The position numbers were made by a program, and so were the translations under genes. Shown one piece after another: positions 3,341 through 60,117 of a stretch of DNA of 64,000 bases. The notes below the pieces were generated by a model. The model was given only the letters and a program-made list of their open reading frames with translations, had not been told where the DNA came from and made no database searches. This DNA is from Mytilus trossulus. Its lineage: Eukaryota. Within the stretch, counting starts at the first letter, position 1, and each line of letters opens with the position of its first letter. The stretch lies in NCBI RefSeq assembly GCF_036588685.1, contig NC_086384.1, positions 50,096,001 through 50,160,000 of the forward strand, read 5' to 3'.

Positions 3341-4771
3341 TGCCCATTGCTGAGACTGGCTTCACGGATGAATAGATATTTGTTTTATACAGAAAACTAT
3401 GAAATATTCTTTAAAACAATGTTTCCATGTATTTTGTTATTTACTTTTTGATCATCAAACTGTTTTGGTCAATAAGAATTTCCCCCTCTCATTATACATG
3501 TTATGCATGGTCAACAAATCTTTGATTTTCGCTTAAAACATCATGTTGGTTAAAATAGTATGAGTTTAAGCATTGCAGTTTTTCATATAAAGAATATAAA
3601 TTGATATTCACAAACATCTCAATTGGTTTTCTGAAAAACTATGAATTTTTATCAGATTTTTCCAGTTTTTGACGATTTTTTTACCAAATTTCGCTTTTTT
3701 CACCCAAAATCAGTTATTTTCATTTTTGTTTAACAATGAATTTTGTTTGATCTGATTTTTAGTATAATAAGATTTGCATTTTTACTATTTTGGAATGATT
3801 TAATAACCGTTAAAACTCCAAATGGGTGTTTTTCCAGTTTTTAACGATTTCTTGATGATTTTGCAATATTTTACCCAAAATCATCATTTACCCTATTAAA
3901 AATTGCTTTCAAATTTTAAAATGATCAAAACAAAGGTTTGTGTCTTTTTTTGGAATATCAAATGAACTTCTATTACCATTTTTTTTATATTTTTCCTGTC
4001 TGTTTTTGTAATCAACTCACGCTTTGTTAATCTCAAATTCCAACAAAAATCTGATGTTTTCACCTAAAATTTCACTTTTATAGAATAAAAACATTTTTTT
4101 ATTTATTTCATTTCATAAACACTGTATAAACTGTTGTAAAACTTTTGGTTTGAAAAGATTATCTTCTAAAATAAATGTTTAACAAGCTTTTCCCAGTTTT
4201 TCACTATTTTTGACAAATTTTGCTATTTTCTCACAAAAAATCAATTTTCCCACTCAGATATCTTGGTAGACTTTTAGTATGTTGCAAAGAAAGCCTTTTA
4301 GAATTGAAAAATACCAAAACAAATTCTGTTGCAATTTTGTTGAGGTCAAATGCTATTTTGACTAGACTATACTGTAGTCTGTGATGCTGATGTTTTTTAA
4401 GTCCGTTCGTTGCATGTCAAAAATAATTCATTCATTTCATCAGAATTATTGTAACATTTATCTCTGTCTGTAAAAGAGATAAAAAAAATTAACTTTCGAA
4501 GGCAAAAGTGTAAATAACATCATGAAAAAAGAGGTAAAAAGACCCCCCCAAAAAAAAAAAAAAACAACAAAAAAAACCAACCAAGAACACACAACAACAT
4601 CCTTATAAAAACGGGTTTGATCTTAGGTGCTCCCGTCGTGTTGCTCATGTAAGTAAAAAACCAGTGATGATTAAAAAATTTAATTTGAATCTATTTTTAT
4701 CTATTTCATCATATAATTTGATATTAATTAAGCAACTGACGACATCATATGGATGTATTGTTATATGTAGT

Positions 4772-4816
4772 GGGGATTTACATTCAATTTGGACGCAGTA
4801 GTGCGAAACTTCCTGT
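4772..4816 (+). promoter_or_regulatory. Putative TLR-A proximal promoter: kappaB-like GGGGATTTAC (4772-4781) and ETS ACTTCCTGT (4808-4816)
   Basis: Both motifs are identical upstream of TLR-C (15935-15944, 15965-15973) while the spacer has diverged. Confidence 0.55.
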
Positions 4817-4895
4817 TTTGATTGTAAACCTTTTGTTTAACAATTAAACAATAAAAATATTGGTAACAATAGCTCTTTAGCACAATGAACTTAAG

Positions 4896-5025
4896 GTATA
4901 AGTTTCACAGATCTATATTTAAATGTTTACATATTGCCTGACTGGCTTGATTTGAAATGATGAAAAACCGATCAAAAGATATTTAATGATACTGTGTTTT
5001 ATTCATTTCGTTGTGATATATTCAG
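4896..5025 (+). other. Putative 5'UTR intron of TLR-A (GT..AG, 130 bp)
   Basis: aacttaag|GTAT...ttcAG|aaat is conserved in TLR-C (16044-16149). It would remove the ORF-track ATG at 4986. Confidence 0.5.
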
Positions 5026-5069
5026 AAATCAGATTACATTTTAAAGATTCACACATTAATTTTACCAAA

Positions 5070-8769: not shown

Positions 8770-9000
8770 AAACTAACCATAGATACCAGTATAAACGTTG
8801 TGTTTACGCTAGACGCACGTTTAGTCTGCAAAAGACTCAGTTGTGATCCTCAAATCTAAAAGTTAAAGAGACCAATTAGAGGACGAAGTTGGAGAGCATT
8901 GATAACCAAAAGTCCTAACAGTTTCGGGAAATACAGCTAAGGTTATCTATTCCTGAGGGAGAAAAACCTTAGTTTTACAATAAAGTATTGTAAACAGTAA
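8770..9000 (-). repeat. Degenerate copy of the hammerhead-containing interspersed repeat
   Basis: Aligns to 19130-19350 and 42370-42540; the catalytic core is mutated. Confidence 0.7.
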
Positions 9001-11127: not shown

Positions 11128-12775
11128 TCAATCCAAATAGTAGCATTCATTGTTAACAAACTCATTTGAAATAATTAAGATCATCTTTTTACATTTTGAA
11201 ATGGAATTACTAATGGCAAGTCTTTTTTGACCAGGCCGTACATCCCCATCTCCTCTTTTTGACAAAAGAAGTCTATAATTTCGTCTCTCTTCAAGAAATG
11301 AACGCAAAGGTCCATACACCCATTTATAGTCCCCATCACAATAAGCTACATATGCATCATCTCCAAGTGCTTTTTCTTTTGACTTGCGGAAAAGTGGATT
11401 GGCCATTCCGATAAATAAACAAAAGTATTGTAGATGCAATTTGTAACGATATCCAAGTAGGATAAATAATAGAATCACACCGAATAAAGTTGCAGAAAAA
11501 ATTAACCATATTGTCGTTATACATCTTCTTCTCATAATTCGCAAGTTATTGTAGACGATATTTGTTTTTGTGATATTTTCATCGTTTCCGACACACGAAT
11601 AACTACCATTGCTGTCAAGTTTCACTTTAATAGTAAATAACCATTCTACAAATTTTAATGAAGCACACGTACAGACAAGAGGATTTCCCTCTAATAAGAC
11701 TGTCAATGTCTTATTTGATTTTCTAAATAGCACTTCAATTGCGTCAATTTTCTGTGTAGTCAAAGATAAAGAGCCTACGCCGGTTAAGGTCATTGAGGTT
11801 TAATGGAATAGTTGTGAATAAATTCCTTTCAAGTATCAAAGATTGCAAACAGTCAGTTTGACTTTTGAATGTTGAACTACTGAATTGGTCTTTGAATGCA
11901 TTCCTTGAAAGGTCTGTATACCGCAAAAGTTTGAGTCCATGGTGGAATTGTCCATGGTGATCATCTTTTAGACCAATACTTAATAAAGAACTTTGCAGTA
12001 TCAGCTACTCCAAATTTAATCCCGAATAAAAAAATTCACGATTTAAAATTTAGGATTTGAAGTGTGACATATTGAGAACTCCTACGTTCTGCAATCCGTA
12101 AAAAGATAGGTGCAGTCGTAAAATGAAGAGTATGTTAAATCAAACATTTTTAAGGTTTTAATATTCTTAAATGTGATGCTATTTATTGAACTGGTATGGC
12201 TGTGAATAAAAGATGCGTTGATGAATTCAAACGAAGACGGAAATCGTGTAACGACATCGTATGTGTATGGGAACTTAACTGTTGTCCTGATGGCCGGGGT
12301 AACATTGTTCATTATATCTCTTTTGTATTGGTATATTCTTAGTGAATCTTCTGAGATTTGTAAACAAATTGAGATTTACGATCAGCCAAGCTCTATATAT
12401 ATGTAAGTAGTTCTGTTGTAATAACATATTCCACGTAATGTCTAAAATTATTGCTCAAATCCAATTCATCCATTTTTCGATTCGCAAACACTCGCAAGCT
12501 GGTAATGTTTTTGATAATATTAGATAATCTTGATTTTGAATAATAAGACTGGAAAGAGCTTTTAAAGGTGAAAAAGAATGTATTTCTATCGCCCGTAATC
12601 TGCCCACTATACTTAAATATTCCAACGGTGTACTTTTGAATGCGCTAAAAGTAGAGTTATGTAAAATATTATGTTCATAATCAATGTAGAAGTACTTTAG
12701 ATTTTGCATAACAGAAAATATCCAAATCGCGAATGATCCATTTAACGGTCGACCATAAGTAAACACCATTAAAGC
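11128..12775 (-). pseudogene. TLR pseudogene TLR-B (5'-truncated, internal deletion, frameshifts, TIR truncated)
   Basis: ORF pieces 12455-12784, 12082-12312, 11744-11926 and 11128-11793 are collinear with TLR-F. Confidence 0.92.
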
Positions 12776-14111
12776 TGTTTTCATAAGTGAACAAAAGGAA
12801 TAATTCTGTTGTTGAATGTATTGATCGGTGCCATGAATGCACGCTCATTTCATGCTCAGACACTTTCGTCCCTGAACTATACAGATTGATATGAATAAAA
12901 TGAGGAATGGATTATACGTAAGTTAGAAAGGAACCAAATTTAAAAACAAATATAACCAAATGACATATAGGGGGCAATATATAGAGTTTCCATGTATATT
13001 AGACTATCTAAACAACGCGTTGTTTGTGTGTATAGAAGTGTGGTAGAACTAACATAGGTTTGATAAAACAATATTAAAATGTGTACACCTATATGATAAA
13101 GAAAAAAAACCCATTCAAAACATAAAATATTTGGTTTTTGCTTTCGCCGGGAACAAAGGGAAAACAATGTGAGCCACTCAAACAAAACTTCAGTTACTGT
13201 AATATATTATGCGTAAACTATTTTTCTATTCTTTTAATCAGTAAATTATAATTTTCTCTGGTGCCATCACAAAAAGAAAAGAAAAGATAAGTAAAGCTCA
13301 CCACATCAAGAGACAAAACCATGACCAACAAAAGACAGACAACAATAACACTGAAAATTAAAGATTGACCGACAGGAATATGATAAAAAGCCGGGTTGAC
13401 TACGTGTGATATGGAAGAGTGATTATATAGGTGTCATAGCATGGTGATGACAGAAACAGTATCACATTTACTACACAAGACAACAGGTTTCTGCTCCACT
13501 GGTGTTTCCAGACGTCTTTTTCCATATAAGTCTGTGATAAATTCAAAATAATATATCCGAAATCATCTGTGACACAGATATTTCATAACGGTCAACTAGA
13601 GTAAAACTTTCTACTTTTTTCCTTTATGAAATAAATCACGCTAATTTACAAATTTTGAGTAATGTGATGTTTTCTGACCAGACAATGAATGATCCACATT
13701 TTTAATATTTATGACTGGCTCAATATCAACAGTGCTCTTTCCTTCAAAAGTGTCGACTGTGGCATCATCGAAGGAAATTATCAACCTAATTTGTCTTGAC
13801 GTAAGAAACACTACGGGAGTCAGGAATTGCTCACATTTTAGCAGCATCTGCGAATTTTTCTTTCAAATTTCTTTACACTCATCCCTATATTTAACAAGCA
13901 AATGCTTCTTGTTTTACATTATCTTCACTTACTTGCTCGTGTTCTCATGGATAGCCAATCAAAATAACCTATAATAGTGAAACATACACGCAATGTACTC
14001 ATGTGTATGGTCAAATTTTGAACGACATCAAAGAAACACAAAGACATAATTCAAAAAGATTTGATAAAGAAAAGATGAGCGAGACTTTCGACTGTGTTCT
14101 ATTTTACATAG

Positions 14112-14990
14112 CTATTGTTATAGATCAGACTGATATAGATGATGGTTATACTTGTAACTCCAGAGTCTCTGTGTTCTATTTGACAACTATTGTTATAGAT
14201 CAGACTGTTATAGATGATGGTTATACTTGTAACTCCAGAGTCTCTGTGTTCTATTTGACAACTATTGTTATAGATCAGACTGATATAGATGATGGTTGTA
14301 CTTGTAACTCCAGAGTCTCTGTGTTCTATTTGACAACTATTATTATAGATCAGACTGATATAGATGATGGTTATACTTGTAACTCCAGAGTCTCTGTGTT
14401 CTATTTGACAACTATTGTTATAGATAAGACTGATATAGATGATGGTTATACTAGTAACTCCAGGGTCTCTGTGTTCTATTTGACAACTATTGTTATAGAT
14501 CAGACTGATATAGATGATGGTTATACTTGTAACTCCAGGGTCTCTGTGTTCTATTTGACAACTATTGTTATAGATCAGACTGGTATAGATGATGGTTATA
14601 CTTGTAACTCCAGAGTCTCTGTGTTCTATTTGACAACTATTGTTATAGATCAGACTGATATAGATGATGGTTATACTTGTAACTCCAGAGTCTCTGTGTT
14701 CTATTGGACAACTATTGTTATAGATCAGACTGATATAGATGGTTATACTTGTAACTCCAGAGTCTCTGTGTTCTATTTGACAACTATTGTTATAGATCAG
14801 ACTGATATAGATGGTTATACTTGTAACTCCAGAGTCTCTGTGTTCTATTTGACAACTATTGTTATAGATCAGACTGATATAGATGATGGTTATACTTGTA
14901 ACTCCAGGGTCTCTGTGTTCTATTTGACAACTATTGTTATAGATCAGACTGATATAGATGATGATCATTCTTGTAACTCTGGAGTCTCTA
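14112..14990. repeat. 75-bp minisatellite, ~11.7 copies (two units of 72 bp)
   Basis: Unit ctattgttatagatcagactgatatagatgatggttatacttgtaactccagagtctctgtgttctatttgacaa; gives 25-aa repeat ORFs on both strands. Confidence 0.97.
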
Positions 14991-27005: not shown

Positions 27006-27624
27006 TCACTTACGTTTCATGGCTAGATCCAAACATTTCCAGAAAAAAATAATTTCATTTAATGTTTTTGTTTTACGACTGTGGTCATTGGCGTCCAGTG
27101 ATACCATTTGCATTACACATTGCGGTATTTTTTATTTTGTAGTACTTTCCAAGCTTATAACAATTAGTTTTGCTTGCAACTTAATAAAATGCTCAATTCC
27201 AACAGTAGCTTCATAGCTCGCCCATTCATTGTTCACAAACTCATTTGAATTAATCAAGATCATCTATTTACATTTTGAAATGGAATTACTTATGGCAAGT
27301 CTATTTTGACCAGGCCGTACATCCCCATCTCCTCTGTCAGACATAAAAAGTTTATAATTGCGTCTCTCTTCAAGAAATGAACGCAACGGTCCATACACCC
27401 ATTTATAGTCTATATATATATATGCATCATATTCAAGTGTTTCTACTTTTGACTTCTGGAAAAGTGGATTGACCATTCCGATAAATAAGCAAAAGTATTG
27501 TAGATGCAATTTGTAGCGATATCCAAGTAGGATAAATAATAAAAGTACACCGAATAGTCGTAGAAAAAAATACCCATACTGTCGGAATACATCTTATTCT
27601 TATAATTTGCAACTGATTGTAGAC
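27006..27624 (-). pseudogene. TLR remnant TLR-D (end of LRRCT, TM, TIR; stops and indels)
   Basis: ORF piece 27264-27509 plus flanks that translate to TM and TIR box3; closest to TLR-B. Confidence 0.92.
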
Positions 27625-36358: not shown

Positions 36359-38319
36359 TTACGTGTTCATCTTCACAATAATTGCGGCAGAATTCTCCGA
36401 TTCATCCGGGTAGATTTTCAAAGACTGTAAGAAAGCTTGTCGTGCAGATTCCTTGTCGCCAAATAATTGTAAAGCAATTCCCAATAAAGTGTAGGCCTCC
36501 GCTGTACTCTTAAAATCTGCCATCAAATATCTTTCTCCTATAACAATTTTTAAATCTTGAATAGAATCCTGACAATGTCTAACATCATTGAGGTGATTAT
36601 GACAAAGAAAACTAAGGAAATAAGCATACGCTGTGGATGGAATATAATATATGTCATTGCATCCCTCTATTAAAAGTTCTTCTGGTGTTAACGTTGAATT
36701 CTCTGTTAATTGTATCAGATCTACGAACAGTATTTTCCGAAGACAAGCCACACTCGTCTTAAAGAATGACAGCAGTTTAAGTGACTGGTAATGGATATGT
36801 GACAGAGTCAATCCCAGAAACAGTTTATCGGAAGAACATTTTGATATAGAATACCTAATGATGTGTAAAGCTTTCCTGTATTGCTTTGTTTTGTAAAAAA
36901 ATGAAGCTACCATAAGCCATCCAGAAACAGCGTCATGATAGACATTTGTAAGAAGTGTACTCAAACAGGATTTGTACCGTTTGTATTGGTATTTATTATT
37001 GATAATTGCACCATAAAGTGGAAATCTTTGAGCTTGTTTACTGCATCGCTTTGATATGTAGTATGCATACAAGTGTTTTAATGAAAATTTATGACACCAT
37101 ATGCTGTGAAATAATCCGGGGTTGAATACATGTATATCTAACTCAGAATAAGTTTCGAAGATATCTATACCAACATGCAAAATTCTGGATTGCACTATTT
37201 TCTTAACGTCATTTACATATAATGTACATGGTTCAATTGGAATATTCCTTATCGATACAGTAAAGTTAGATATTTGATCTGAAAATAAAATGCATCGCCA
37301 ACCATAGCTGTGTAACGTGTTTAATTTTTTTAAAAGTACATCACGAGCACGACCGTCTATTTTGTTCTCGAACATGTTGTTTTCTGGAATGAAGTAATGT
37401 GAACAAACCGAATGCTCAACACAATAGACTAACCTGCTGAAACATCGCATAAAACAAGTTATAAGATTATCAGGTTTCCATACAGATGATGGTAGTTCTT
37501 CAGATATCCAGAACATAATTGTTTTAAGGAAATATGAACAGAGTAAATCTTTACATTCAGAATCATTTGATATAACATCTTTCAAAATTATTTTCAAGAG
37601 AGCATAGCACATTAATTGGGTGTGAGTAAATGTATTAATTAGAAGTTTTTCAGCTACTGAAAAAGATACTCGCCATTCTAGATCTTCTTTCGGTGATCCG
37701 TGAACTCCGACCGGTACAAAAAGTACTCCGTGTTTTATAATACTTTGTATGACGTTATGACTCGGCCATGAGCTACCTGATCTTGTTATCCAATTTACAG
37801 CAGAAGATATCCACATTTTACCATGTAAAGAAAAGGCATGATCAAAAAATCCATTTCTGTCAGATATACACGGTCCATGAATTTGGTTGCCTTCTTTCAA
37901 TACCAATAACATATTTCCCTTACATAATGCACTAGAAAAATAACGTTTACCATAATGTTCTTCACATAATTGAAAAAGACGAAACGAATCTCTGCTATAG
38001 TCTAGTCTTAATAAAGTATAACAAGGCTTTACATCGTCTGTATCCATGGACAAATAAGGTCTACGTATATCAAAGTCAGGTTGTACATTTTCAATAACCT
38101 CAACGAATTTGCTCACAAACATAATATCAAAATCACTTCCTCGCATGTCAAGTCCTTCTCCAATGCTTCCACTTGTTATTACTGTTTCCTTCTTGTTATT
38201 CGACAAATTGTCTCTCACCATGTTCATTAATCTGATTGTTTTAACATGCTTTTCCGTTCCTACGATATTTTGACATAAATGGCGGTAAAGAGCTTGTGAT
38301 ATGTTTGGTATTATAATAT
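36359..38319 (-). CDS. cGAS-like receptor (cGLR; Mab-21 nucleotidyltransferase with C-terminal TPR-like helices), main coding exon
   Basis: NTase signature SGSIGEG...SDFDIM, candidate third acidic residue FFDHAF, EWRVSFSVAEK and LCSYFLKT Mab-21 motifs, HYFIPENNMF, TPR-like AYTLLGIALQLFGDKESARQAFLQSL. The frame stays open 92 nt upstream of the ORF-track Met to a phase-1 acceptor (tttctaattacAG, 38320-38321). Confidence 0.92.
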
Positions 38320-40185: not shown

Positions 40186-41587
40186 AGTTTAAACATTGCA
40201 TAAAAAAATTGTGTTTCAGTGTTTAAAAAACTGTGTCAAACATTGTTTGCCAATCTGTCAAAATATTTACAGATTTAAACAAAGAACTAAACCTTATTAT
40301 GTAATGCTATCATACACCTAATCATCGTGATTAATAGTTAAATCATCTCAAAATAGCCTAACCTGTTAATATTTTGTTTACAATATAAATAAGTCATTTG
40401 TAAGCTATGGTGATGAAATTTCCTTTAAATTATATTTTTTATGTGAACACAGAATAGTATAAAATAAAAAGTTGCTCATACTCATTTCAAAGTTTGAAAG
40501 AATATACAAATTAACGTTGTTGCTAAACTACAATCTCGCAAGCCTGTTTTTATCTAGGTGCGATATGTGTTTTTCTGTAAAATCTATGTTCGTTCCTATT
40601 TTAAACAGACGTTCTAATGATTCCGAATACGCCATATACTTTAACTTTGTAATTTGGTTATAAATGGCAAGAAACATTGCAAATGGAGTATTTTTCAAAC
40701 TACCTCAAGATATAAATAATTGTGTTTAAATACATGGTAATTCATATGTAAAGTTGTGGATATAAAATCGAGTTCTCTTTTATATGAAATAGAAAGTTCC
40801 ATACACAATATCGTTCTGTATACAAAACCATTCGAAAGTGAAAAAAAATAGTTTAGATGTGCTAACATGTACATATAATACATTCACTGACCTATCTTGA
40901 ACTCCAAGGGAAATTCAAAACGGAAAATCTATAATCAAAATGCAAAATCAAAACCGCAAACACATCAAATATATAGATATTAATTGTCATAGTCCTGACT
41001 TGGTACAGATATTTTCTTATGAAGAAAATGATGGATTGAAACTAGTTTTATAACTACCTAAACGTGTCACTTTTATGAAAGTTGCACAAAATGACCATAT
41101 TTTGTCAACAATGTGTGAACAAAACAAAGAGACATATCAGCTGAAAATGTCAGAAATAGCGGTACATCAGTCAATAACAAATATGTCAACAAAGAAACAC
41201 AAAAAGGCATATAGACAAAGCACATCAGCAACACTAAAAAAATAATCAAAGGAAGATGACGGGTTGTGATAATGATGTATTTGAGATAATTCATGTGTTT
41301 TAATCTATTCGTGGTTTTAAGATATTAGAACTTAAAAAGATTAATATATGATTTTTTTTTATATGAAATAAATTTAAAATGTTTACCTTTTATTCTCTTA
41401 TTCTGTTATATACATATGGGGCTGATCCGTGGATATTCGTAATATTTGCTTTCGTTTCCAATTTTAATAATATGTAATGTACAACAAGTACACAAGATTT
41501 TACATTAAAAAAAAAAACAGCCGTTGGTAACTATTCTATCCCATTATTAATAAGATTGTCTATGTAAATTAAAGTTGAAATGTTTAC

Positions 41588-41602
41588 CTTCCATTGTCTC
41601 AG
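41588..41602 (-). CDS. Candidate cGLR start micro-exon 2 (ctgagacaATGGAAG|gtaaac)
   Basis: The phase-1 donor matches the phase-1 acceptor at 38319, giving M-E-D-I-I-I-P. Confidence 0.6.
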
Positions 41603-41902
41603 CTTGTTGTAGGAATGTGTTTTCCCGTAATATCAACTTTCGTTTTTATTTGAATTACACGTAGTTATAGCACCTACGCAATACTTTATAATTTGCATTT
41701 AAAACCCCAGGTATATCAAACATGGTGAAAAGGAAAGCTAAGAAAAAAAAATGTGTACACACGTGGCAAATTAGGTATTAGTGTGTTTGTTTATCTTCAT
41801 ATTACACTTTAATATATGTCTGTTTACATGAACAGCAGACTGTTACTATTTTATCACATTATGTTTAAATTTGTTGTTTTAAATTAAAGGTAAATTGTTT
41901 AC

Positions 41903-41918
41903 CTGCCATCCTTTCAGC
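41903..41918 (-). CDS. Candidate cGLR start micro-exon 3 (gctgaaaggATGGCAG|gtaaac)
   Basis: Phase-1 donor; paralogous to micro-exon 2; gives M-A-D-I-I-I-P. Confidence 0.6.
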
Positions 41919-42401
41919 CTGTTATAAGATTTTATATGAAATGTGTATTTCCGTTATACCAACTTTCGTTTCCATTTAACTTAAACCAACTGATAACACC
42001 TGTATGTAGACAAAACTATTTTGTAATTTGCATTCAAAAACTCAGGTACATTACACATTGTGACAAACTAAAATATCAATAAAAAATGTGTACACACGGG
42101 GAGAATTAGGTTGTATATAGATCTTGTTAACAGATCTGGTTTATATATCGGGTTTGTGTCGTTGTTCTCCTCTTATAGTTGATGTGTTTCCCTCAGTTAT
42201 AGTTTGTAACCCGGATTTGTTTTTTTCAATCGATTTATGAACTTTGGGCAGCGGTATACTACTGTTTTTTTATTTATGTTACTGTTGATATTTAAGTTAT
42301 TCAATATTTTGTAACATAGGCAGCAATTCATAATTAATAATAGTATATTAAAGATTAAAATGCCTTAATAGTTATCAAAAGTACCAGGATTATAATTTAG
42401 T

Positions 42402-43962: not shown

Positions 43963-46540
43963 TTAAAGATAAGCCTAACGAATCTTAATGTTAGTGTTCC
44001 AAAATATTCACACAAATGCAAAACAATGCAGTATCAAGTAAATTTTCAAATAAACACACTAAACATTTACAAAATATGAATGATGAACACAAAATAGAAC
44101 ATGTAAAACATTCCTTATCATGTTTGTGGTATATAGGTCATGCCAAAAACCATAACACAATGATAGGTAGCAGTACATGTATGAGGTCTACTGGAATTCA
44201 ATAGCATTTGGTTTATAAATATGTCCACTGATTTTGGAGATTACTCTTACAAAAATCAAAACACAATATGTTCAATAAGATTACTATCAACTTCAGATGT
44301 CTGTTTTAATGTTCTTTTCAATACAAGGAAAATCATAATGTGTATATACTATTTTATATGAGTTATACTATCTGACGATAACCAAATATGGTTTAGCAAT
44401 AAGGTTTATATTTGAATATGCGTGTTATTAAATTGAATCACTTCCTCTGCATACTCTTATACAGGTTAGTAGCAATATTCTGTAGTGTCGAGCTGTTTGA
44501 AAAAGCCATTAGTAGTACCGAAGCAAAATGAGGAATTTTGCAAACTTAGATCATTGATGCCTTCCGTAAAAACTCGTTTGACTTCTTATCGTCAATGTGG
44601 TTCATTATGTGCCATACTGTCTTGAATCAAAGTCCGTTGCGAAACCGGAAAGGCCGAAAGAATCCGATTAGTTCGTAATCATTTTACAACGTATTGAAAC
44701 TCATAATTCAAAAATAAACACCATGGCGAAACAAATAAATGCAAAAACACTGACCAACCAAGCATATCAAAAACAGGAATCTCATGTGATGCTGCTCAAC
44801 ATAACGCACCATCGTATTGGTCATGTAGGTTAAATTGATCTGCAACGCAAATTTGTTTTTGAGGACCTCTAACTGCAGTTCATACATAAGAAGCTGTTAA
44901 TAATAAAAAAAATAATATCAAGTATGTTGTCAGTTATTTCAAAATGAAATAACATTCACGAATAGTATTACGTTTACGTTTACGCATCGTTGTAAATATA
45001 TGAATTTGATGAGACTGTCGTATAAGTGAGAGGTTTAGCACTATAAAACCAGTTTCAATCCACCATTTTCTACATTTGGAAATGCCTGTACCAAGTCAGG
45101 AAAATGACAGTTGTTGTCCATTCGTTTGATGTGTTTTGTCATTTGAATTTGCCATTTGATTAGGGACTTTCCGATTGAATTTTCCTCGAAGTTTAGTCTT
45201 TATGTGATTTTATTTTTAACACCTTCAATTTATCGTTGTTCACTATTTTAACGAAAGAACATATTTCAAACGAATATGAATAATATCTCTCTCTTTTTTT
45301 ATAGCATTCTTATTACATGTATCTATTCGACATTTTACGTTGAATTTATCAAACCTTCAATTAAGTTTATAATTAATGCAATATATTCAGATCGTAATCT
45401 GCCTTGTTTTCTTTTTAAATTTGATGATTGTTTTAGTATTCAGATTTAAGCAAGTCTGTCAACGCAGATTGTTTCACATACCAATAGCGATTAATTTGTT
45501 TTTGTTATGCATTTATGGAATTTGCGATGGAACGTTGTAACAAGACTGCCGTTCGTCCTGTAGAGTTTGCGTTTCTCAACCGATCGTCACGTCACTTGTT
45601 GTATACATTAATTTTTTTTTGCAGGGGTAAAATCAAAATTGTTTTAAAATAAAGAGCAAAGGTCACATCGGTAATGTAGTAACGAGGGGATAATCCGCTT
45701 TAAGATATCATGTTAAAATTGAGATGCATCCTTAATGAACTAGAATCTTTTTGTTAAATTATAACTTTTAGTTTACTTATTAATATTTGACACTATGATT
45801 CGCTCTCTCAATTTTTACCTTTTTATTCGATCAAAGACAGTACATTTATTTCCTTTTATTTCCTTTTTTAGGGTTTGGTACTGTGGTCTTCAACCTGAAT
45901 GAGATCATGCAATGACCCTGAATGTCTGTTTTATTTGTTGCCTTGTGTAATATTGTTTAGGAACAAAATAAAAAACAAACAACAACATAAGATTTAATCT
46001 TTATCTTAATCAGAAGAGACATCAAGTGCCTTTCAATTCTTTTATTAACTTGTTTGCACTAATTTGCTTCGAGTTTGTTTTGGCAGTGCAACTCATAGGG
46101 CGAGGCCATTCACCAGCTTCTTCATCTTTCTGGTCAGACAAGACATCCTGTTTTCGGGTCTAGCGACGTCTTAATAAACCGGAATTTAATAAAAGAAAAT
46201 AGTAGAATTTTAATTGCATTGTCGCGTGTCGTAACGACAGGAAGCCTTACATGTTTGTTTTTCGTAATCTCAAATTTATGAAATGTAAATAGAACAAGTA
46301 GCTCGGGAAATTGCAATTGTTATCCTTTCCTTGTTTCCTTTCAGTGTATTAATTTTTTGTACAACAATTATTTTATTGTTTACTTCATCAATAAGAAACT
46401 TCAGTTACATGGATAATGTCAAAGGTTAATATTTGTTTTGTAATATTTTGCATGACTTGTTATATTTGTGTTAAAATCAACTTTATTAGTTTTATTATCT
46501 AACAGAGATATTCAGTAGTTTTATCGAAGTGTTTTTAGAA

Positions 46541-49029
46541 ATGATTCTTTCTCAACTTTTGTCGTTTCTTTGGATTATATGTGTCAGTTCCCATTTTATG
46601 TGTTACCGAATCATTGTGATATTACATTAACTAAAAAAGGACATAAGATGTAACTGCAGCTCAATGGATTTAACACATATACCAGCAGATTGCCCATCAA
46701 ACACAACAAGTTTATATTTGTCTAATAATAATCTGGACATTATATCAAGGAAAGCTTTCACTAAATATGCAGAGCTTAGATATCTGGATATAAGTGGTTG
46801 TCATATGACAACAATCGACCAATCAGCATTTGATAATTTATCACATTTAAAAGAACTGAGAATGTCACCACTAGATGATCTACAAGTACTTCATATATCA
46901 CATGACTTGCTGTCAACGTCTTCAAAAGAGTCGTGGTCGGATTTTCATAATATAACAAAAGTGTTTAGTTATGGTGGACCGTCAAATGGGTCGTTTGCAG
47001 AGATATTTCTGTGATGAAAAATCTGAAGTATTTACATAGTCGTATTCAAATTCATGTTCTACGTAAATGTACGTTTCATGCCTTTGCAGAAACGCCATTA
47101 AAATATCTAGAGGTAAACGGCCATTTAATGACGATAGAAAAAGATACTTTTTAACCATTAACATTTCTTTCCAGTCTTGTAATTCCAATTGCACGTTTCC
47201 TAAAACTATCAAATACTTTGCCAGCTTTGCACGTGTTCAAAAAACGTCAAATGGATGAACTAAATTTAAACAATAATTTCAGAGTACACGGTGAATTCAT
47301 TGTAACAACTGATTTATTTACATATATCGGTTACATTTGTGTGAAGAAATTATCTTTGACCTTCAATGGCATAAAAATTATCAATGCTGACGCAGTTCAG
47401 AAGATGAAATATAAACATTGTTTTGAGAGTTTAAACTTAAGTAACAATGACTTTGATTTTCACCAGTTGTTAACAATATGGTTTTTCAATTTGTTTACAC
47501 ATCTGAAGACATTAGACATGTCGGATAACAACATTCAATTTAATCAAAATAAAGTTAAGATAGATGGAATTAAACATACACGTGATAATTATGATCTATC
47601 TGATAATGAATCCTTTAACATCATTCCCTCATATTATCCTCCAGATATTGTATCATGGTTTCCTTCGACACTTGAAATCCTGAATATATCTTGTATCAAC
47701 GTAGTAGGGAACCCAATCAACAGCCTTACATTTAAAGAAATCAAAGACCTGCAAATAATTGATTCATCATACTATTCATTGTTTGACTGCAATTACACAT
47801 TTAACGGACTTCAGGACGTGTTAATACTTAATGTTTCACATTTCAAATGCGGACTTTTAAATCACAACCTTCTACAATCTGCCGTCAATTTGGAACAGTT
47901 GATAATGCAAAGCTCTTCACTATGTATCGGCCTAAACAATGATCACCACTGTCAATTCCTCCATGGACTCAAACGTTTACAGTATATAGACTTTTCAAGA
48001 AATGCATTTGAAGACCGATTTAGAATTTCAACATTTAAAAGTCAACTTGATAGTTTGCAATATTTGATACTTGAAGGAAATTTATTCACAAGTATTCCAT
48101 TATGTCTGGAAGACTTTAACATATTAAGTTTTCTAAATATTAGAAACAACAAGATAGCCTACTTGACAACTGAGGAAATTGACGCCATTGAAGTGCTTTA
48201 CAGAAAATCAAATAGAACAGTGAAAGTCTTATTAGATGGCAACCCTCTTGTATGTACTTGTGCTTCATTAGATTTTGTAGAATGGTTATTTACTACTAAA
48301 GTGAAACTTGACAGCAATGGTAGTTATTCGTGTGTCGGAAACGATGGAAATATTACAACAACAAATACAATTTACAATGACTTACGAATTATGCGAATAA
48401 GATGTATAACAACAGTTTGGTTAATTTTTTCTGCAACATTATTCTGTATGCTTCTATTGTTTATTCTAGTTGGATATCGTTACAAATTGCACCTACAATA
48501 CTTTCGTCTATTCATCGGAATGGCCAATCCACTTTTCCGGAAGTCAAAAGGAGAGACACTTGAATATGATGTATATGTAGCTCATTGCGATGGCGACTAT
48601 ACATGGGTTTATGGACCTTTGCGCATATTTCTTGAAGAGAGACGAAATTATAAACTTCTACTATTAGAAAGAGGTGATGTTCTTGCTGGAGAACCTAGAC
48701 ATTTTACTTTATACAATGCCATTCCAAAATGCAAAAAGATAATCTTAGTAATTTCAAAAGAGTTTGTTAACAATGATTGGGCATACTATGAAGGTATTGT
48801 TGGAATTGAACATTTTCTAGGATTACAAGCAAAAATAATTGTTATAAACCTAGAAAATATAACCAAAACAGAAATACCGCAATGTGTTCTTCAAATGATG
48901 TCATTGAACGCCAACAACCACATTCGTAAAACAGACACATTAAATGAAAAAAAACATTTTCTGGCAATGTTTAGATCAAGCAATGAAACATTAATGAAAG
49001 ACAGTGTTATTATGGCTCTTTTCAATTGA
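46541..49029 (+). pseudogene. TLR pseudogene TLR-E (frameshifts and a deletion in the first ~700 bp, +1 in an A-run near the end; 47218-48950 still open)
   Basis: The ATG at 46541 frameshifts after the signal peptide; pieces 46664-47014 and 47218-49029; terminal IFW.CLD is read out of frame. Confidence 0.88.
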
Positions 49030-49671: not shown

Positions 49672-49715
49672 ACGCCATACGCGCGTTTCGTCTTCATTAG
49701 ACTCATCAGTGACGC
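49672..49715 (-). ncRNA. Type I hammerhead ribozyme motif (intact core, GUA triplet)
   Basis: gcguca CUGAUGA gucu aauga agac GAAAC gcgc GUA|uggcgu. Confidence 0.8.
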
Positions 49716-51598
49716 TCAGATCAAAATAGTTTTATAGCCAATTAAGCACAAAGTTGAAGAGCATTCCGGACCCAAAATTTCAAAATACGGCTAAGGTAAT
49801 ATATTCCTGGGATAATAAAGTCCTTAGTTTTTGAAAAAAAAATTGTTACAGGAAATTTATAAATATATACAAATAATTGTATTTAAATGAAAAAATACTA
49901 TTTCACATAATTTTGTCAAACAGACATGCTTGATTGTATGCTTATCATGTGTATGATACGAACCATATCTGCTTTTTTAAAGATTTAATAATTTTACATT
50001 TGAAAAAAAAGTAGCTATATTGCATTCAATACAAGGTCAGAAATGTATGTGAAGTAAAGCGATTTTCTTTGTAATACCACTTCTGTATAGCAATATTCAA
50101 ATAAAATATCTTACTCATTAAACATTACCTTATTCAACTGGTTAGAGAAGAAAGATTTAAGTAATACAGCAAATGCCTACACTTTGATTGGAATTGCTTA
50201 CTTTGTTTCATGTTGAATGCTCGTTTACGTTTTTCAAAGCCCTCGAAACTTCCCGTATTGGTCCATCGCACTTTAGCGTGATATACTGCCGTACAGTATA
50301 TTAGCAACCAAACAACCATCGAATTTTAGCGTGAGACTACGCCATACTTGAGTGTAGACCATTGCACTTCACCGTAGCCATCGCACCTTAGAGTCCTACA
50401 TATACTAGTATAATATGTGTTGATGTAACTAATGTAATCTGTTGATGTATAGGGTAGCTTAATTTTGGAACCTTAAATCTTAAAATACCACTTAACAGAT
50501 AGTCATTTTATATAAAATAAAATGTGTATTTCATTCTTTATTGAAAATTGTCTCACTGATGTACGAATTTATACTCCTTAAACTACAATTACTCAATCTT
50601 TTGTAAGCGAACTATTGGGCTATTCCAGAATTAGTCTGTCCCCCCCCTATGGAAGACATTGGAATTCCAGATTTTTTTTCCTTTATTTTTTCTAAAATTC
50701 CAAACAAATTTTCCATCTGGACAAAAAAAATCCAAACTTTTTGTCTATTGGTGCACAAGAAATTCCATGTAATTTTCAAAGGGGCGAATAATTTCCAGAA
50801 ATTTTTTACTGATATTCATTAAGATTTTCCAGAACAGAAATATTTGGTGACCCATTATTTCCAGGTATATTACACAAGAGTATTGATCAATTCCCCATGT
50901 ACATGTATAAACATGAAAAGACTTCAAAATAATGGGGGAGGGGCAAAGATCTGACACTGTCAGCAATAGTAGTTAAGAGAGCAGGAGCATTCAAAATATT
51001 GTACTGTTTTCAATTACGGTAGCTATTACACTGATAAAATTTAAATAAACCATGTATATGCCTCTTTTGGGGGTATACCGTATATAATATTCAAGATATA
51101 GATTGATAAAGTTATGCTTCCACTAGTATTATAACATGCGTATTGATTGATTAATATATTGTTTGAGAAATAAATAAACATCAATAGATAACATGAAGTA
51201 TAGATAAAGAGAGACAATAGAAAACAAGAAGTAAAGATAAAAAGAAAGAATAGAAAACAAGAAGTATAGAAAAATAGCAAGTAAAATAGATCACATGGTG
51301 TCGGGCCCCTTATTAATATCAGTAATTTATATTATGAATATAAGTGTCAAGAATGGCTTGGGCTCCTGACGATGGACATGGCCATGGTCAATTAGTTGAT
51401 TCTAATTGGTCTAAATAGATGTTCGAAACACCTAGTGATCTATGGAGTTGGGGTGCTGGGATAGGATATGATAACGATTTATTGAAATTTTAAAAAATCT
51501 ACATATACATGTTATACATTACAGTAAAAATATAGAAAAGCGGGTCTTGGCCATTTTATGGTTTACTTTTAAATCAAAAGATGAAACCAACACGTTTC

Positions 51599-54500
51599 AT
51601 AATTTAATGCGTCCGAAGCGCTTTTCTTGATTTACCTTTATAAGGAACGCTCAGAGCCAAATATTTGCCTTCCCATCCCTTTAAACAGAACAATGCAGTT
51701 TCATTGTAAATGCAAGTATAAAAACAGTAATGCCTATTTAGAATATTGCTTTAAATAATCCAAATGATATGTGGATTGTTATTTAAAGTACGTGCTCTTG
51801 GATCTAATAAAAAGACACAACAGTTACATTTTTAAATAGAAGAAGTTTTATTTATTTATGCATTTAAAGTGTGTCACTTATTCTTATCTTTATTTCGATT
51901 TATTCGAGTTCTTTTACCTGTTAAGATAGGTAATTTTATACGAAATAGATTTGGGTATATTGAAGTGGTTTTTAAAATGAAAGAAACCCATTATCGTTTA
52001 AATGCACATAAACTTTACTATTGCATGCAACGTTGTCACATTCTGTTAGAATATTTAATTTAATTTATATTGAACAAAATACACATGGGTTGCATGCGTC
52101 ACGGTACAAGGAACTTATATCAAACACATATTTTACAAAATAGTTTCACATTTTTTCATGACAGTCACGTGATGTTTGTTTATTTTTTAACGTTGAGTAC
52201 TTCAATATTGGTGATTGATGCGTTGAATTTTGGTACTTCCTATTTTCCTTTTTCGTTGGGTACTTGAATGTTGGTGATTGATGCGTTGAATTGTGGTACT
52301 TCCTCTTTTCCTTTTTCGTTAGGTACTTGGATGTTGGTGATTGATGCGTTGAATTTTGGTACTTCCTCTTTTCCTTTTTCGTTGGGTACTTTGATATTGG
52401 TGATTGATGCATTGAATTTTGGTACTTTCTCTTTCCTTTTTCGTGACTTGATAAATAATAGTTATACTTCCAAATAAATGTAAAATTTAATTAAAAATGA
52501 TTTAAAAAATATTCGACATTTATTTTTGTTAGGGATTGGTGTTCCCCAGAGGTGAGGTGAAAGTACGACCATTTTGGCCATAGGGTCCACATGAACCTTA
52601 AACAAAAAAGTATGATAAATGTAATATATTAATGTCTTTTTCTTATTCTTTTCTAAAGCAAAGCTCACTCATTTAGATATCCCAGAATATTCAATGGAAC
52701 AAGTTTAAATTTGAAAATTGTTTTAAATTATAATTTTATCATTTATCATTTATAAATGACACAGTTGTTATCACTACCGTTCCATGGCTTTATCCAAACA
52801 TTTCCAGAAAATGTTATTTTCATTTAATGTGTCTGTTTTACGAATGTGGTCATTGGCATCCAATGCCATCATTTGAAGAACACATTGCGGTATTTCTGTT
52901 TTGGTTATATTTTCCAGGTTTATAACAATTATTCTTGCTTGTAATCCCAGGAAATGTTCAATTCCAACAGTAGCTTCATAGTATGCCCAATCATTGTTCA
53001 CAAATTCTTTTGAAATCACTAAGATTATCTTTTTGCATTTTGGAATTGAATTGTTTAAAGCAAAAAGTCTATGTTCTCCAGCAAGGACATCTCCTCTATC
53101 TAACAAAAGAAGTTTATAATTCCGTCTCTCTTCGAGAAATAAGCGCAGAGGTCCATATACCCATTTATAGTCGCCATCGCAATAAGCTACATATGCATCA
53201 TATTCAAGTGATTCATAATTTAATGCGTCCGAAGCGCTTTTCTTGATTTACCTTTATAAGGAACGCTCAGAGCCAAATATTTGCCTTCCCATCCCTTTAA
53301 ACAGAACAATGCAGTTTCATTGTAAATGCAAGTATAAAAACAGTAATGCCTATTTAGAATATTGCTTTAAATAATCCAAATGATATGTGGATTGTTATTT
53401 AAAGTACGTGCTCTTGGATCTAATAAAAAGACACAACAGTTACATTTTTAAATAGAAGAAGTTTTATTTATTTATGCATTTAAAGTGTGTCACTTATTCT
53501 TATCTTTATTTCGATTTATTCGAGTTCTTTTACCTGTTAAGATAGGTAATTTTATACGAAATAGATTTGGGTATATTGAAGTGGTTTTTAAAATGAAAGA
53601 AACCCATTATCGTTTAAATGCACATAAACTTTACTATTGCATGCAACGTTGTCACATTCTGTTAGAATATTTAATTTAATTTATATTGAACAAAATACAC
53701 ACGGGTTGCATGCGTCACGGTACAAGGAACTTATATCAAACACATATTGTACAAAATAGTTTCACATTTTTTCATGACAGTCACGTGATGTTTGTTTATT
53801 TTTTAACGTTGAGTACTTCAATATTGGTGATTGATGCGTTGAATTTTGGTACTTCCTATTTTCCTTTTTCGTTGGGTACTTGAATGTTGGTGATTGATGC
53901 GTTGAATTGTGGTACTTCCTCTTTTCCTTTTTCGTTAGGTACTTGGATGTTGGTGATTGATGCGTTGAATTTTGGTACTTCCTCTTTTCCTTTTTCGTTG
54001 GGTACTTTGATATTGGTGATTGATGCATTGAATTTTGGTACTTTCTCTTTCCTTTTTCGTGACTTGATAAATAATAGTTATACTTCCAAATAAATGTAAA
54101 ATTTAATTAAAAATGATTTAAAAAATATTCGACATTTATTTTTGTTAGGGATTGGTGTTCCCCAGAGGTGAGGTGAAAGTACGACCATTTTGGCCATAGG
54201 GTCCACATGAACCTTAAACAAAAAAGTATGATAAATGTAATATATTAATGTCTTTTTCTTATTCTTTTCTAAAGCAAAGCTCACTCATTTAGATATCCCA
54301 GAATATTCAATGGAACAAGTTTAAATTTGAAAATTGTTTTAAATTATAATTTTATCATTTATCATTTATAAATGACACAGTTGTTATCACTACCGTTCCA
54401 TGGCTTTATCCAAACATTTCCAGAAAATGTTATTTTCATTTAATGTGTCTGTTTTACGAATGTGGTCATTGGCATCCAATGCCATCATTTGAAGAACACA

Positions 54501-54830
54501 TTGCGGTATTTCTGTTTTGGTTATATTTTCCAGGTTTATAACAATTATTCTTGCTTGTAATCCCAGGAAATGTTCAATTCCAACAGTAGCTTCATAGTAT
54601 GCCCAATCATTGTTCACAAATTCTTTTGAAATCACTAAGATTATCTTTTTGCATTTTGGAATTGAATTGTTTAAAGCAAAAAGTCTATGTTCTCCAGCAA
54701 GGACATCTCCTCTATCTAACAAAAGAAGTTTGTAATTCCGTCTCTCTTCGAGAAATAAGCGCAAAGGTCCATATACCCATTTATAGTCTCCATCGCAATA
54801 AGCTACATATGCATCATATTCAAGTGATTC
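51599..54830. repeat. Direct tandem duplication of 1616 bp (51599-53214 / 53215-54830) with TTC junction microhomology
   Basis: ORF-track duplicates are all offset by 1616; I could see only five substitutions. Confidence 0.96.
52774..53214 (-). pseudogene. Isolated, uninterrupted TIR-domain copy of TLR-F, without an upstream in-frame ATG
   Basis: ESLEYDAYVAY...CLDKAMER*; an in-frame TAA lies 12 codons upstream of the junction. Confidence 0.85.
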
Positions 54831-56855: not shown

Positions 56856-57107
56856 TTTTCAAATCAATTGTAAATCTTTTACTTTTAATATCTTTATTTT
56901 GGAGTGCATAACCACAAAATTTAGTAATATTCTCCTTTCATTAAACATTTAAATATCTAAATATAAACATGTATATAGCATTCAAAAACCGGAGCCACTC
57001 AAGCAATAATCAAAATAATAAATTATATATACAAAGGTAAATTTCATATCAGTCTAAATTTTATTGTTGATATGTTACCAAGTTGATAATTGTTTTGCGG
57101 AAGATAA

Positions 57108-57143
57108 ACAGGAAGTACGGGCGGTTACATGAAATAGAAATCC
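57108..57143 (-). promoter_or_regulatory. Putative TLR-F promoter: ETS site (57108-57116) and ISRE-core GAAATAGAAA (57131-57140)
   Basis: The reverse complement of 57100-57190 aligns with 4730-4820. Confidence 0.5.
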
Positions 57144-60117
57144 AAACTACCTAGCTGATACATCCTCATTGTATCGTCGGTTCATTTAACATTTTTAAAA
57201 GTAACTAACATATCATGAACCCCCCAACGGATTTTAATCAAATCACGTGATACGATGTTTAAAGATTTCAGGTGTTTTTACTTTAATTCACATTATGAAT
57301 TAAAAATATTTATTAGTCATCGTTAGTACGTGGATTATTGAATATCGTAAATTTAATTTTAAACTTATTATAAATCTATCGCTTATGTTTTTTTTTATAT
57401 TATTTTCTATTCTTTTTTCATGTTATTTTTGTTAATTTGTTTTTTGTTTATTTAAATTCGTATTGCCACAAACTGTAAATATTTAATGTCAATAAGTTTG
57501 ATGTGATTATACATTGTTCTATGATATTTTAATTATTGTGTGTGTCAATCACTTTATTTACTTCATATTTACATTTCTCATTTGCTTGAGCTCATTTGAT
57601 AGTTTTTAAATTTGTCAGTTTTACTTTTTTGAAAGTACAACAGATTTTTCACACATGTTTGTGTAGAATAACAATTAATTAAAATTAACAATTCAATACC
57701 AGATCTTCCACGATCCAAGTGGAATGCTTGATCACCGCTATATATCGAAATTGATTATTTCGCGGCCGTTTTCGTCGATATATATGCCGAATGACTGCCA
57801 TGGAAATAGTCCATTTACAAGTAGAAAATATTTCAATAAAAACTAGTGATACACAAAACTCATAAATACACCTTTTATTATTTGATAACCCTTTATTATA
57901 ATAACAGTACTGTTGTTTTCATGTAATTTATCATTTTGCTCTAATTTTGAAAAATAAATCTGAATTAATATATAGGAATCGATAATCGTGACACACAGGA
58001 TGCATCTTTCTCCGAAAATTACTTATCAACATATCGTGGTCGTTCACAGGAAGAACGAATTTGTATTTATAAACACAATAAACAAAACATGAGGTTAAGC
58101 ATTACACAGGTAAAATTTATATTTTGTCATCCGTTTACCTTTGATGGGGATCGAGCTTAGTTATATTAGGGTGAGCTAGATATGAGTTCATTTGAGTTCT
58201 AATGGCTAATGTCATCATGTTTATAGAATATAGAGGTGAAAGATACCAAAGAGACATTCAAATTCATTAGTCGAAATTAAATTGACAAAGCCATCAAATT
58301 TCTAAACATGAAAAATACATGTAGACGAAGAACAGTACACCAAACACAACATAGAAAACTAAAGTCTGGGCAATACGAATCCAATTAAAAACTAGGAGTG
58401 ATAAGGACGATAAGCAGTTTCGGTTCCGAATTGTAGCACCCCTCGTTTTGCTCATCATAGTGGAGATCCGGAAATAACTCGAATTCCGTAGTTCACACTA
58501 CATGTACTTAGGAAAGAGGGAACGGGATATAATTAGATTTAAAGGTATTTGTATTAAAGACATATGCAATCTTTGTTTTTGTTTTCATATTCTAGCTGAC
58601 AAAAATCATGAAATTGCTGATTACCGAAATTTCAAATGCCCATAAATATGCAACTGGTAATCTTAGTTTTGGATTGTAACATCTTATATGTTGTGTTAGA
58701 AAATAATCATAATATCCAAAATGCGATTTGATATTTCTGAAACTCAAAATGCTCTCAGTTTCATGGCCCATGTTTATGGAAAACTGCTTAAACTTATAAC
58801 TTTCCCAAGTGCATCTGTTGTATACTACTTCCTGCATTGTCCAGCAAGTTTTGAATATTGTATTGCTTATATATACAGATCTGCAGGAGCGGATCCAGTC
58901 ATTTAATAACAAAAGGGTTCCAATCCCAGCGCAACCGTATTTCCCTATTTAAATGAATTGATCGTAAAAAAGGGATTCCAACACCCGGAACCCCATCTCC
59001 CTTTAGATCCGCCACGAGCTGCAAATACTTTTTTCGGTGTAAATTGCTAACATTCTTCTTGTAGCAAATACAGATTGAATCTTATATAAAGGCAACAGTA
59101 GTATACTGCTGTTCGAAATTCATAAATCGATTGAGAAAAAAAACCAAATCTGGGTAACAACTAAAACTGAAGGAAACACATCAAATATAGGAGGAGAACT
59201 AAGACACAACATTAAAATGTAACACACAAAAACGAGCTATAACTATGGTCATTTCCCTAACTTGGTACAGGGGATTTAAATAACCAAAAAAAATGGTGGG
59301 TTGAACCTGGTATGCCAACCCTTTAGGTTTAACCCCTTCCTGTTCCCATCGGTACTCTGCTACCGATGGGCTATATTTTTGGGCAACTAGCTTGCGTAAA
59401 GTATTGAATCTTTGGCATTTGTTGACGTACAGAAGTGGTTGATGGCTCAAATCAATCCCCTATATCACAGCTGGGTGATTCGTGGGGCCTAAAACCTCTC
59501 GCGAGTATGGTTTGGTATCAAATCGCTCCTAACGGACAACGTTTTCTCCTGTGAAAACCGTGTTTTTTTTTTTAATTTTGAACACAATATTTCCGTAGAG
59601 TATGGGAAAATATACTGTTGATTTTGGGGGCAATATAACTTTTTTTTATTAACTTCGCTGTGTATTTTTGAGGAAAACTATTCATAGTATGATTTAAACT
59701 TGTTCGCAAGTGAAATAAGTGATTGTAAGTGTACCAACGCAATCCTTTACCTGAAACGCACTCTCAATTTGTGGTCACTAATTTCCAAATTAATTGAAAA
59801 AGAGACAAAAACAGACAAAAAGTCATGTTTTTTTTTTTGAGGTTGACATAGATGTAACAGAACATTGTTTCTGAAGTGCCTGGTTATGGTTATGCCGAAA
59901 ACACTTTTGTTGAAATAAAGAAACTGGTAAAAGTTAAGAAAAAAATAGCAGACTAAAGTATGATATCATCCTATATTCGCTCAAAATGATGGGATTTACA
60001 ACAATTATATGTTATATCGAGACTTAATTTCTATACGAAAACAGACTGATTATTTGTTTACTCTCACTTCGTTAATGGAACAGTTAACTACTAAAATTTC
60101 AATGTTTTAAACTGGAA

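Follow-up and report, generated by a model that had tools for sequence, protein, structure and literature searches.

A 64,000-nucleotide stretch of the genome of the mussel Mytilus trossulus (contig NC_086384.1, C12:50,096,001-50,160,000; hereafter the window) contains members of two unrelated immune receptor families, the Toll-like receptors (TLRs) and the cGAS-like receptors (cGLRs), interleaved with their own relics. The window, which is free of N, is a slice of a larger array that occupies 590 kb (C12:49.93-50.52 Mb) of the 1.30-Gb genome. This array is a birth-and-death tandem array that has grown by segmental duplication. Its repeated pattern is best explained by a single old, probably chance juxtaposition of a TLR and a cGLR, after which a block holding both was copied, probably by unequal crossing-over, with the two families likely independent of each other. 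A probability of roughly 0.7 is assigned to this reading.

Content and extent of the array

The first-pass annotation of the window listed three intact TLRs, three broken TLRs, one intact cGLR, and one cGLR relic, and each of these is present where it was placed (Table 1). The accompanying statement that these are the only intact host genes holds for long open reading frames (ORFs), although genes built from short exons may remain. A Pfam scan covered 18 of the 31 ORFs of at least 100 aa, in which every match was to a TLR, Mab-21, or BEL/Pao retrotransposon family, and 58 of the 62 ORFs of 68–99 aa, in which there was no match; the four shorter ORFs left out of the scan lie in a duplicated copy. 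The proteins closest to the products of the window genes all come from Mytilus mussels.

The 660-kb region surrounding the window carries 33 TLR-derived loci, of which 10 are intact, and 13 cGLR-derived pieces, of which 6 are intact. Inspection by eye of the ORFs of at least 220 aa in this region, made without multi-exon annotation, identified only TLR, cGLR, minisatellite, and mostly transposon-like frames, with a few frames unassigned, and no pathway partner of the kind of STING, MyD88, or IRF was found among the long ORFs. The TLRs of the window represent one lineage (72–84% identical) that is almost restricted to the array, with TIR identities of 56–100% inside it and at most 37% elsewhere. 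Outside Mytilus, no close relative of this lineage appears among the matches listed, the best of which is 27% identical.

Duplication of a block containing both families

The physical linkage of TLRs and cGLRs is borne out by a block with both families that recurs along the 590 kb. The order of the block is TLR-B(+)/TLR relic(-)/cGLR(-)/TLR-C(+)/TLR-D(-), and it is found in three complete copies (50.112-50.153, 50.320-50.398, and 50.449-50.521 Mb) and one copy without TLR-D (49.969-50.004 Mb). Comparison of the window with the third block gives identities of 96.8% for TLR-B, 92.5% for the cGLR, 91.6% for TLR-C, 95.2% for the spacer between TLR-C and TLR-D, and 94.2% for TLR-D, and the collinear spacers are 65–84% covered. 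It follows that the TLRs and the cGLR were copied together. The alternations of TLR and cGLR along the array arise from the copying of one block and are therefore not independent events.

Dead passengers have been copied along with the intact genes. The minus-strand E-type TLR relics are broken in all ten cases, and a 3' relic of the cGLR is found in four blocks. The C-type TLR, which is the head-to-head partner of the cGLR, is broken at six of seven loci, the intact copy lying at C12:50,001,398, and the TLR types beside the cGLR are mostly dead. Since pseudogenes have been duplicated as faithfully as intact genes, co-duplication in this array needs no function. The mixture of intact and dead copies, the repeated block, and the monophyly of the local cGLRs support the birth-and-death turnover that had been proposed for both families. 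The intact genes of the array have ratios of nonsynonymous to synonymous substitution (dN/dS) below 1, with means of 0.31 for the TLR ectodomain, 0.15 for the transmembrane (TM) segment plus TIR domain, and, among the cGLRs, 0.37 for one half of the protein and 0.50 for the other.

The TLR genes and their TIR domains

The intact TLRs are single-cysteine-cluster TLRs (sccTLRs) of the V-type, as they contain leucine-rich repeats (LRRs) and a TIR domain by Pfam, exceed 800 aa, and have a single coding exon; the CxC cap before the hydrophobic helix and the N-terminal hydrophobic stretch were identified by visual inspection of an alignment. These genes resemble the tandem TLR clusters described in Mytilus (Saco et al. 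2023, PMC10279657), which likewise consist of sccTLRs of more than 800 aa with single-exon coding sequences (V-type by a size rule), expand by tandem duplication to species-specific copy numbers, and have TIR domains under stronger constraint than the ectodomains. In contrast to the array studied here, no cGLR is mentioned inside a TLR cluster in the accessible part of that paper. A lone TIR that had been annotated as a separate gene (52774-53331, minus strand) is instead part of a recent tandem copy of the 3' end of TLR-D, with 5 mismatches in 1,619, and its ORF has no methionine ahead of the last third of the TIR domain. A TIR-only gene at this position was accordingly rejected.

Synonymous divergence (dS) among the TLRs is 0.02–0.27 in the TM plus TIR portion, far below the 0.33–0.77 observed between ectodomain types. 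Furthermore, the trees of the two portions disagree (all trees in this analysis were made with FastTree), as ectodomains cluster by type across species and TIR domains largely by species group. From these sequence comparisons, the TIR ends look homogenized by gene conversion. A similar pattern is described for the mammalian TLR1/TLR6 pair, in which the last LRRs, cap, TM segment, and TIR domain are converted and the N-terminal ectodomains diverge (PMC2077338); the mussel array differs from this pair in having ten intact copies plus many relics.

All ten intact TLRs possess an alanine aligned with the BB-loop proline of TLR2 (RDFIPG). The proline of MyD88-type TIR domains is consequently missing from the intact copies, and it is retained in the broken E-type relics. 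An alanine also occupies this position in TLR3 (PMC7215789). Relatives from M. coruscus and M. californianus mostly retain the proline, in intact genes, and these Pro-type loops in other Mytilus indicate that the alanine is recent compared with the TLR-cGLR linkage. In other mussels, a Pro-type BB loop also occurs together with an ectodomain of D-like type (P0132, P0153).

The cGLR gene

The splicing of the cGLR is supported by one contig of run X4 (presumed RNA) that joins 41903-42071 to 37792-38319. The intron has GT-AG ends, the ATG lies in exon 1, and the spliced product has 655 aa. A second, tandem copy of the exon 1 unit is a possible alternative first exon. All four runs of RNA or presumed RNA, selected because they contain the cGLR, have contigs that cover it, and two of the four have TLR-D-like contigs; a lack of contig cover in these runs is uninformative on expression.

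The cGLR protein matches the Pfam families Mab-21 (24.2 bits, cut-off 24.1) and Mab-21_C (E 3e-18), and its best sequence match in the PDB is 8gjy (E 3.5e-14). The AlphaFold model (pLDDT 80) has a TM-score of 0.72 against mouse cGAS, and the top Foldseek rows among the matches listed are cGAS, MB21D2, and coral and oyster cGLR1 (TM-scores by target of 0.60–0.73). Li et al. (2023, PMC9980059) give the active-site motif of cGLRs as h[QT]GS X8-20 [DE]h[DE]h X50-90 h[DE]h. The GS, DFD, and third Asp of the active site are shared across the clade of local cGLRs, and this last residue has an Asp counterpart in the alignment with coral Sp-cGLR1; the TSGS loop and the spacing of 92 place the protein just outside the published motif. 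Two of the three lines of evidence used by Li et al. to recognize cGLRs are present here, namely Pfam or sequence homology and structural similarity, and the protein is predicted to be an enzyme that makes a cyclic dinucleotide for STING. The bivalve cGLRs described in that study are similar in their Mab-21 nucleotidyltransferase with helical bundle, cGAS fold, TPR-appended architecture, and presence in hundreds of copies per genome (428–673 candidates here). They differ in the loop and spacing noted above, and no Mytilus enzyme is named in the main text of the study.

In a tree of 70 rows (8 local rows and 62 of the 120 listed matches), all eight local rows fall into one clade with SH-like support of 100. 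This clade, which includes one database copy of a local gene, also holds proteins of M. edulis (24, all on one contig), M. galloprovincialis (7), and M. coruscus (1). The next relatives of the local cGLRs are 60–71% identical and lie on C5, C6, C8, and C14, and among the matches listed there is no TIR match within 100 kb of them. The same TPR-type subfamily forms a very large array at C14:53-61 Mb and 77-78 Mb, and 59 of the 128 scored matches lie on C14.

Linkage in other Mytilus species

The synteny check proposed with the first-pass annotation supports a linkage that persists, by accession order, in at least one outgroup Mytilus. In M. coruscus, a C-type TLR (CAC5367593), a cGLR of the local clade (CAC5367594), and an intact TLR (CAC5367595), likely of E type, lie on one 1,499,187-base scaffold. 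If accession order reflects gene order, this arrangement is likely that of C/cGLR/E in the window. The accessions of M. edulis interleave likewise, with a TLR (147302), a cGLR (147321), a TLR (147325), a cGLR (147327), a TIR-cGLR model (147330), and a cGLR (147332), followed in a second run by cGLRs (147878-147885) and a TLR (147887). As the adjacency in M. coruscus matches that in the window, the linkage likely predates the M. coruscus split. This split lies tens of millions of years back, and neighboring genes often stay together over such times without selection. In M. californianus, the cGLR P0033 shares its contig and nearby accessions with a TLR but falls outside the local clade, and in M. 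galloprovincialis no listed TLR is found on the contigs of its clade cGLRs.

One M. edulis model (P0016, XP_071147330.1) consists of a Pro-type TIR domain of the TLR lineage of the array fused to a clade cGLR at the start of exon 2. This fusion is likely a read-through product or an annotation join, and it suggests a same-strand adjacency of TLR and cGLR in M. edulis. A family of TIR-cGLR fusions was considered and rejected, as only P0016 among the 14 proteins with this TIR domain is fused.

Proximity of the two families across the genome

The proximity of the two families was probed with a census of 284 Mab-21 matches (141 clusters) and 297 TIR/TLR matches on C1–C14, from which matches on small contigs were dropped. 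One family was circularly shifted per chromosome, and distances of 25, 50, 100, and 250 kb were fixed first; the p values are uncorrected for a total of 32 proximity tests. The numbers of Mab-21 clusters near a TIR match were 4 at 25 kb (1.84 expected, p 0.12), 4 at 50 kb (2.89 expected), 6 at 100 kb (4.61 expected), and 11 at 250 kb (10.0 expected). In this sample of the two families, proximity at 25–250 kb is thus not above chance (p 0.12–0.41), and the permutation check yields no clear excess at any of the four preset distances. Local shifts of at most 3 Mb give the same expectation as shifts over the whole chromosome. There is also no cGLR-like match in 50 kb around the TLR at C7:46.19 or in 40 kb around the TLR at C4:66.42.

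Regulatory motifs

The first-pass annotation noted kappaB-, ETS-, IRF-, and STAT-like motifs in both families; ETS motifs at the TLRs and an IRF-type motif at the cGLRs survive closer examination, and kappaB and STAT motifs do not. STAT/GAS sites are below chance in the window (17 vs 26 expected). Of the four strict kappaB matches, three fall within coding or pseudo-coding sequence, and the fourth belongs to an interspersed repeat with 18 other matches in the 660 kb. Shared kappaB/STAT control of both families was rejected, as neither kappaB nor STAT sites are conserved, the kappaB matches lie in coding DNA or a repeat, and GAS sites are below chance. The density of the ISRE-like motif GAAANNGAAA is 2.19 per 10 kb, compared with 2.18 per 10 kb in a gene-free control, and the intron of the cGLR contains two ISRE-like sites (40786 and 40834).

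An ETS core is found once in each of ten TLR upstream stretches, approximately 220–305 bases upstream, where the control expectation is 0.023 per 430-base stretch and the stretches share ancestry. These stretches belong to nine intact TLRs and the broken TLR-C of the window, the TLR at 49,969,081 being excluded due to an insertion just upstream. No ETS core is present within 1 kb upstream of five unrelated TLRs. In exon 1 of the cGLR, the IRF-type element AAACGAAAGT is the most conserved 10-mer, ranking first among 211 windows in a comparison of 14 exon-1 copies (0.95 vs a mean of 0.66), and 12 of its 15 occurrences in the 660 kb fall within or next to cGLR exon-1 regions. An unlinked cGLR on C14 has this first exon, IRF-type element included, and a C6 cGLR has a variant, indicating that the element of the cGLRs is independent of TLR neighbors. 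Two other cGLRs have no such first exon or element in the 4–6 kb examined. The cGLRs of the array have two to three tandem first-exon units, most with the IRF-type element, and the octamer ATGCAAAT occurs in 5 of the 14 exon-1 copies.

Co-regulated head-to-head gene pairs have starts within about 1 kb of each other. The gap between the cGLR and TLR-C is approximately 4.2 kb, a layout kept in several blocks, and the two genes carry different elements.

Origin and meaning of the linkage

According to the favored reading, one cGLR of the TPR-bearing subfamily would have landed in an ancestral Mytilus among TLRs, and blocks with both a TLR and a cGLR would then have been amplified by unequal crossing-over. 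The TLRs would be ETS-driven membrane receptors whose ectodomains diversify and whose single type of TIR domain is maintained by gene conversion. The cGLR would be an IRF-inducible cytosolic nucleotidyltransferase, the cyclic dinucleotide product of which would activate STING. Any link from TLR through IRF to cGLR would act in trans, so physical linkage would not be needed. The first-pass annotation had interpreted the locus as a possibly co-induced immune island. A selected, co-induced island is not supported, given the absence of a clear excess at the preset distances, the derivation from one copied block, the co-copying of dead genes, and the different cis-elements of the two families.

Several observations weigh against a single chance juxtaposition. 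The adjacency TLR-cGLR-TLR has been maintained in M. coruscus and M. edulis, by accession order, and mussel TLR positions are otherwise only partly conserved (Saco et al., PMC10279657). The census is a sample in which each search scored at most 150 of 376–673 candidates. All four observed cases of a Mab-21 cluster near a TIR match lie within 11 kb, and post hoc tests give an excess of approximately 3–5 fold. At a cut-off of 12 kb there are 4 cases vs 1.08 expected (p 0.025, or 0.10 without this locus), cut-offs of 12–15 kb give p 0.025–0.04 (0.10–0.13 without this locus), and clusters flanked on both sides within 100 kb number 3 vs 0.57 expected (p 0.017, or 0.09 without this locus). Moreover, three further TLR/Mab-21 neighborhoods of distant lineages exist on C2, C3, and C4. 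The C3 locus (C3:45,187,437-45,322,115, L081-L087) contains a 419-aa Mab-21 ORF and TLRs that were co-duplicated (95–97% over approximately 11 kb). At C2:44,495,982-44,556,235 (L063-L069), a broken TLR, an intact cGLR, a broken cGLR, an intact cGLR, and an intact TLR are all on the plus strand, and at C4:23,857,878-23,866,204 (L089-L090) a stop-interrupted ankyrin-Mab-21 frame and an intact TLR frame of 882 aa are approximately 3 kb apart. A common origin of the C2 and C12 loci is unsupported, as the cGLRs of C2 are 35–37% and its TLRs approximately 30% identical to those of the window; cGLRs much closer to those of the window than the ones on C2 occur elsewhere without TLRs. The short-range excess at post hoc cut-offs keeps the island idea alive, at low odds.

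The linkage might instead reflect a selected, co-regulated module in which TLR3-like TLRs and IRF-inducible cGLRs are kept together by shared enhancers or matched haplotypes. Such a module would account for the retention of the head-to-head cGLR/TLR-C pair (approximately 4 kb apart) in several blocks, for the adjacency in M. coruscus and M. edulis, for four independent TLR/Mab-21 neighborhoods within 12 kb, and for the BB-loop alanine shared with TLR3 by every intact TLR. It appears unlikely, however, given that there is no excess at 25–250 kb, the head-to-head partner of the cGLR is broken in six of seven copies, the families have different cis-elements with no common kappaB or GAS site, the IRF-type element is also present at an unlinked cGLR, and the alanine is younger than the linkage. 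The broader version, a genus-wide nucleic-acid-sensing locus of TLR3-like TLRs and IRF-inducible, TPR-bearing cGLRs co-amplified by selection, as one of the C2, C3, C4, and C12 neighborhoods and with occasional TIR-cGLR read-through fusions, is rather doubtful. A general tendency of fast-turnover immune families to gather in duplication-tolerant, gene-poor regions, where they would meet somewhat above chance without coupling in cis, is improbable. It draws support from reported hotspots of presence-absence variation in mussels (PMC10514466) and from an excess of Mab-21/C1q proximity (at 100 kb, 6 clusters where 2.46 were expected, p 0.027; at 50 kb, 4 where 1.45 were expected, p 0.047) that is not seen for a sample of GPCRs (0 vs 2.55 expected at 100 kb); yet TIR/C1q proximity is unenriched (4 vs 3.07 at 100 kb), the local shifts leave the expectation unchanged, and the tests are many and uncorrected. 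Finally, the repetition could largely be an assembly artifact in which uncollapsed haplotypes stand in tandem. TLR-A (50.101 Mb) has a copy 170 kb away at C12:49,930,966 (49.931 Mb) with a 100% identical protein and 98.3% identity over 12 kb, the two copies being separated by a 100-N gap at 50,082,345. This 12-kb stretch may be an uncollapsed haplotype. An artifact on the scale of the array is nevertheless very improbable, as the genes of the blocks differ by 3–17%, the window is free of N, and other Mytilus assemblies carry both lineages on one contig; at most it would inflate the copy count at 49.93-50.10 Mb.

Bacterial defense islands and their proposed fungal analogues (PMC10197012) are similar to the array in that unrelated defense genes stand side by side amid mobile DNA. 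Unlike these islands, the array contains two families only, multiplied by local duplication of one block, is unenriched at preset distances, and gives no indication of having been transferred as a unit. The variety of systems expected of a defense island was not found among the ORFs of at least 220 aa inspected by eye in the 660 kb. No description of a mixed TLR-cGLR array was found in a search of an open-access library, although the genes may be listed in the supplementary data of Li et al. or of Saco et al.; the components of the array and the process that formed it are already known.

The array illustrates how two greatly expanded immune families of mussels came to be interleaved through block copying, and it warns that neighborhood counts in such arrays are non-independent evidence of function. 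It also provides three leads: the IRF-type element in exon 1 of the TPR-type cGLRs, which predicts interferon-like induction; a TLR3-like BB-loop alanine that would have spread by gene conversion; and large copy-number differences between Mytilus assemblies. Were co-regulation shown, functions could be assigned to orphan invertebrate receptors from their gene neighborhood. A genus-wide selected locus, if true, would be an animal counterpart of defense islands that could be mined by guilt-by-association.

Features of the window

Table 1. Genes, relics, elements, and repeats, in window coordinates
Feature	Position	Strand	Remarks
ETS core CAGGAAG upstream of TLR-A	4809..4815	-	
TLR-A, intact, 819 aa	5070..7529	+	single-cysteine-cluster TLR; LRRs, TM, TIR; BB-loop DVLAG
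Broken TLR relic, E type	11131..12808	-	Pro-type BB loop GDGDVRPG
75-bp minisatellite, 12 copies	14092..14989	.	longer arrays in sister blocks
TLR-B, intact, 820 aa	16195..18657	+	
Broken E-type TLR relic	27012..27624	-	TM + TIR part only
586-bp tandem array, 4.6 copies	28212..30933	.	copies 98% alike
cGLR relic, two pieces (31211-32119, 33622-33891)	31211..33891	-	split by insertion; 3' relic at the same place in four blocks
cGLR exon 2	36359..38319	-	Mab-21 nucleotidyltransferase, helical bundle, C-terminal TPR-like helices; GS loop, D-x-D...D triad
Second tandem copy of exon-1 unit	41578..41775	-	70% alike
cGLR exon 1	41903..42071	-	5' untranslated region, ATG GCA G, GT donor
IRF-type element AAACGAAAGT in cGLR exon 1	41962..41971	-	
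TLR-C pseudogene	46532..48990	+	frameshift near 47008, stops; head-to-head with cGLR
1,616-bp tandem duplication	51596..54830	.	first copy contains the lone TIR
TLR-D, intact, 821 aa	54390..56855	-	
ETS core upstream of TLR-D	57109-57115		
BEL/Pao long terminal repeat retrotransposon remnant	61673-64000		integrase, Peptidase_A17, DUF5641; extends beyond the window; also L021

Beyond the window, at C12:50,031,649-50,090,109, the 75-bp minisatellite forms arrays of 7–9 kb, and there is also a nearly perfect 368-bp array; they lie beside a 100-N gap, which suggests a possible assembly join.

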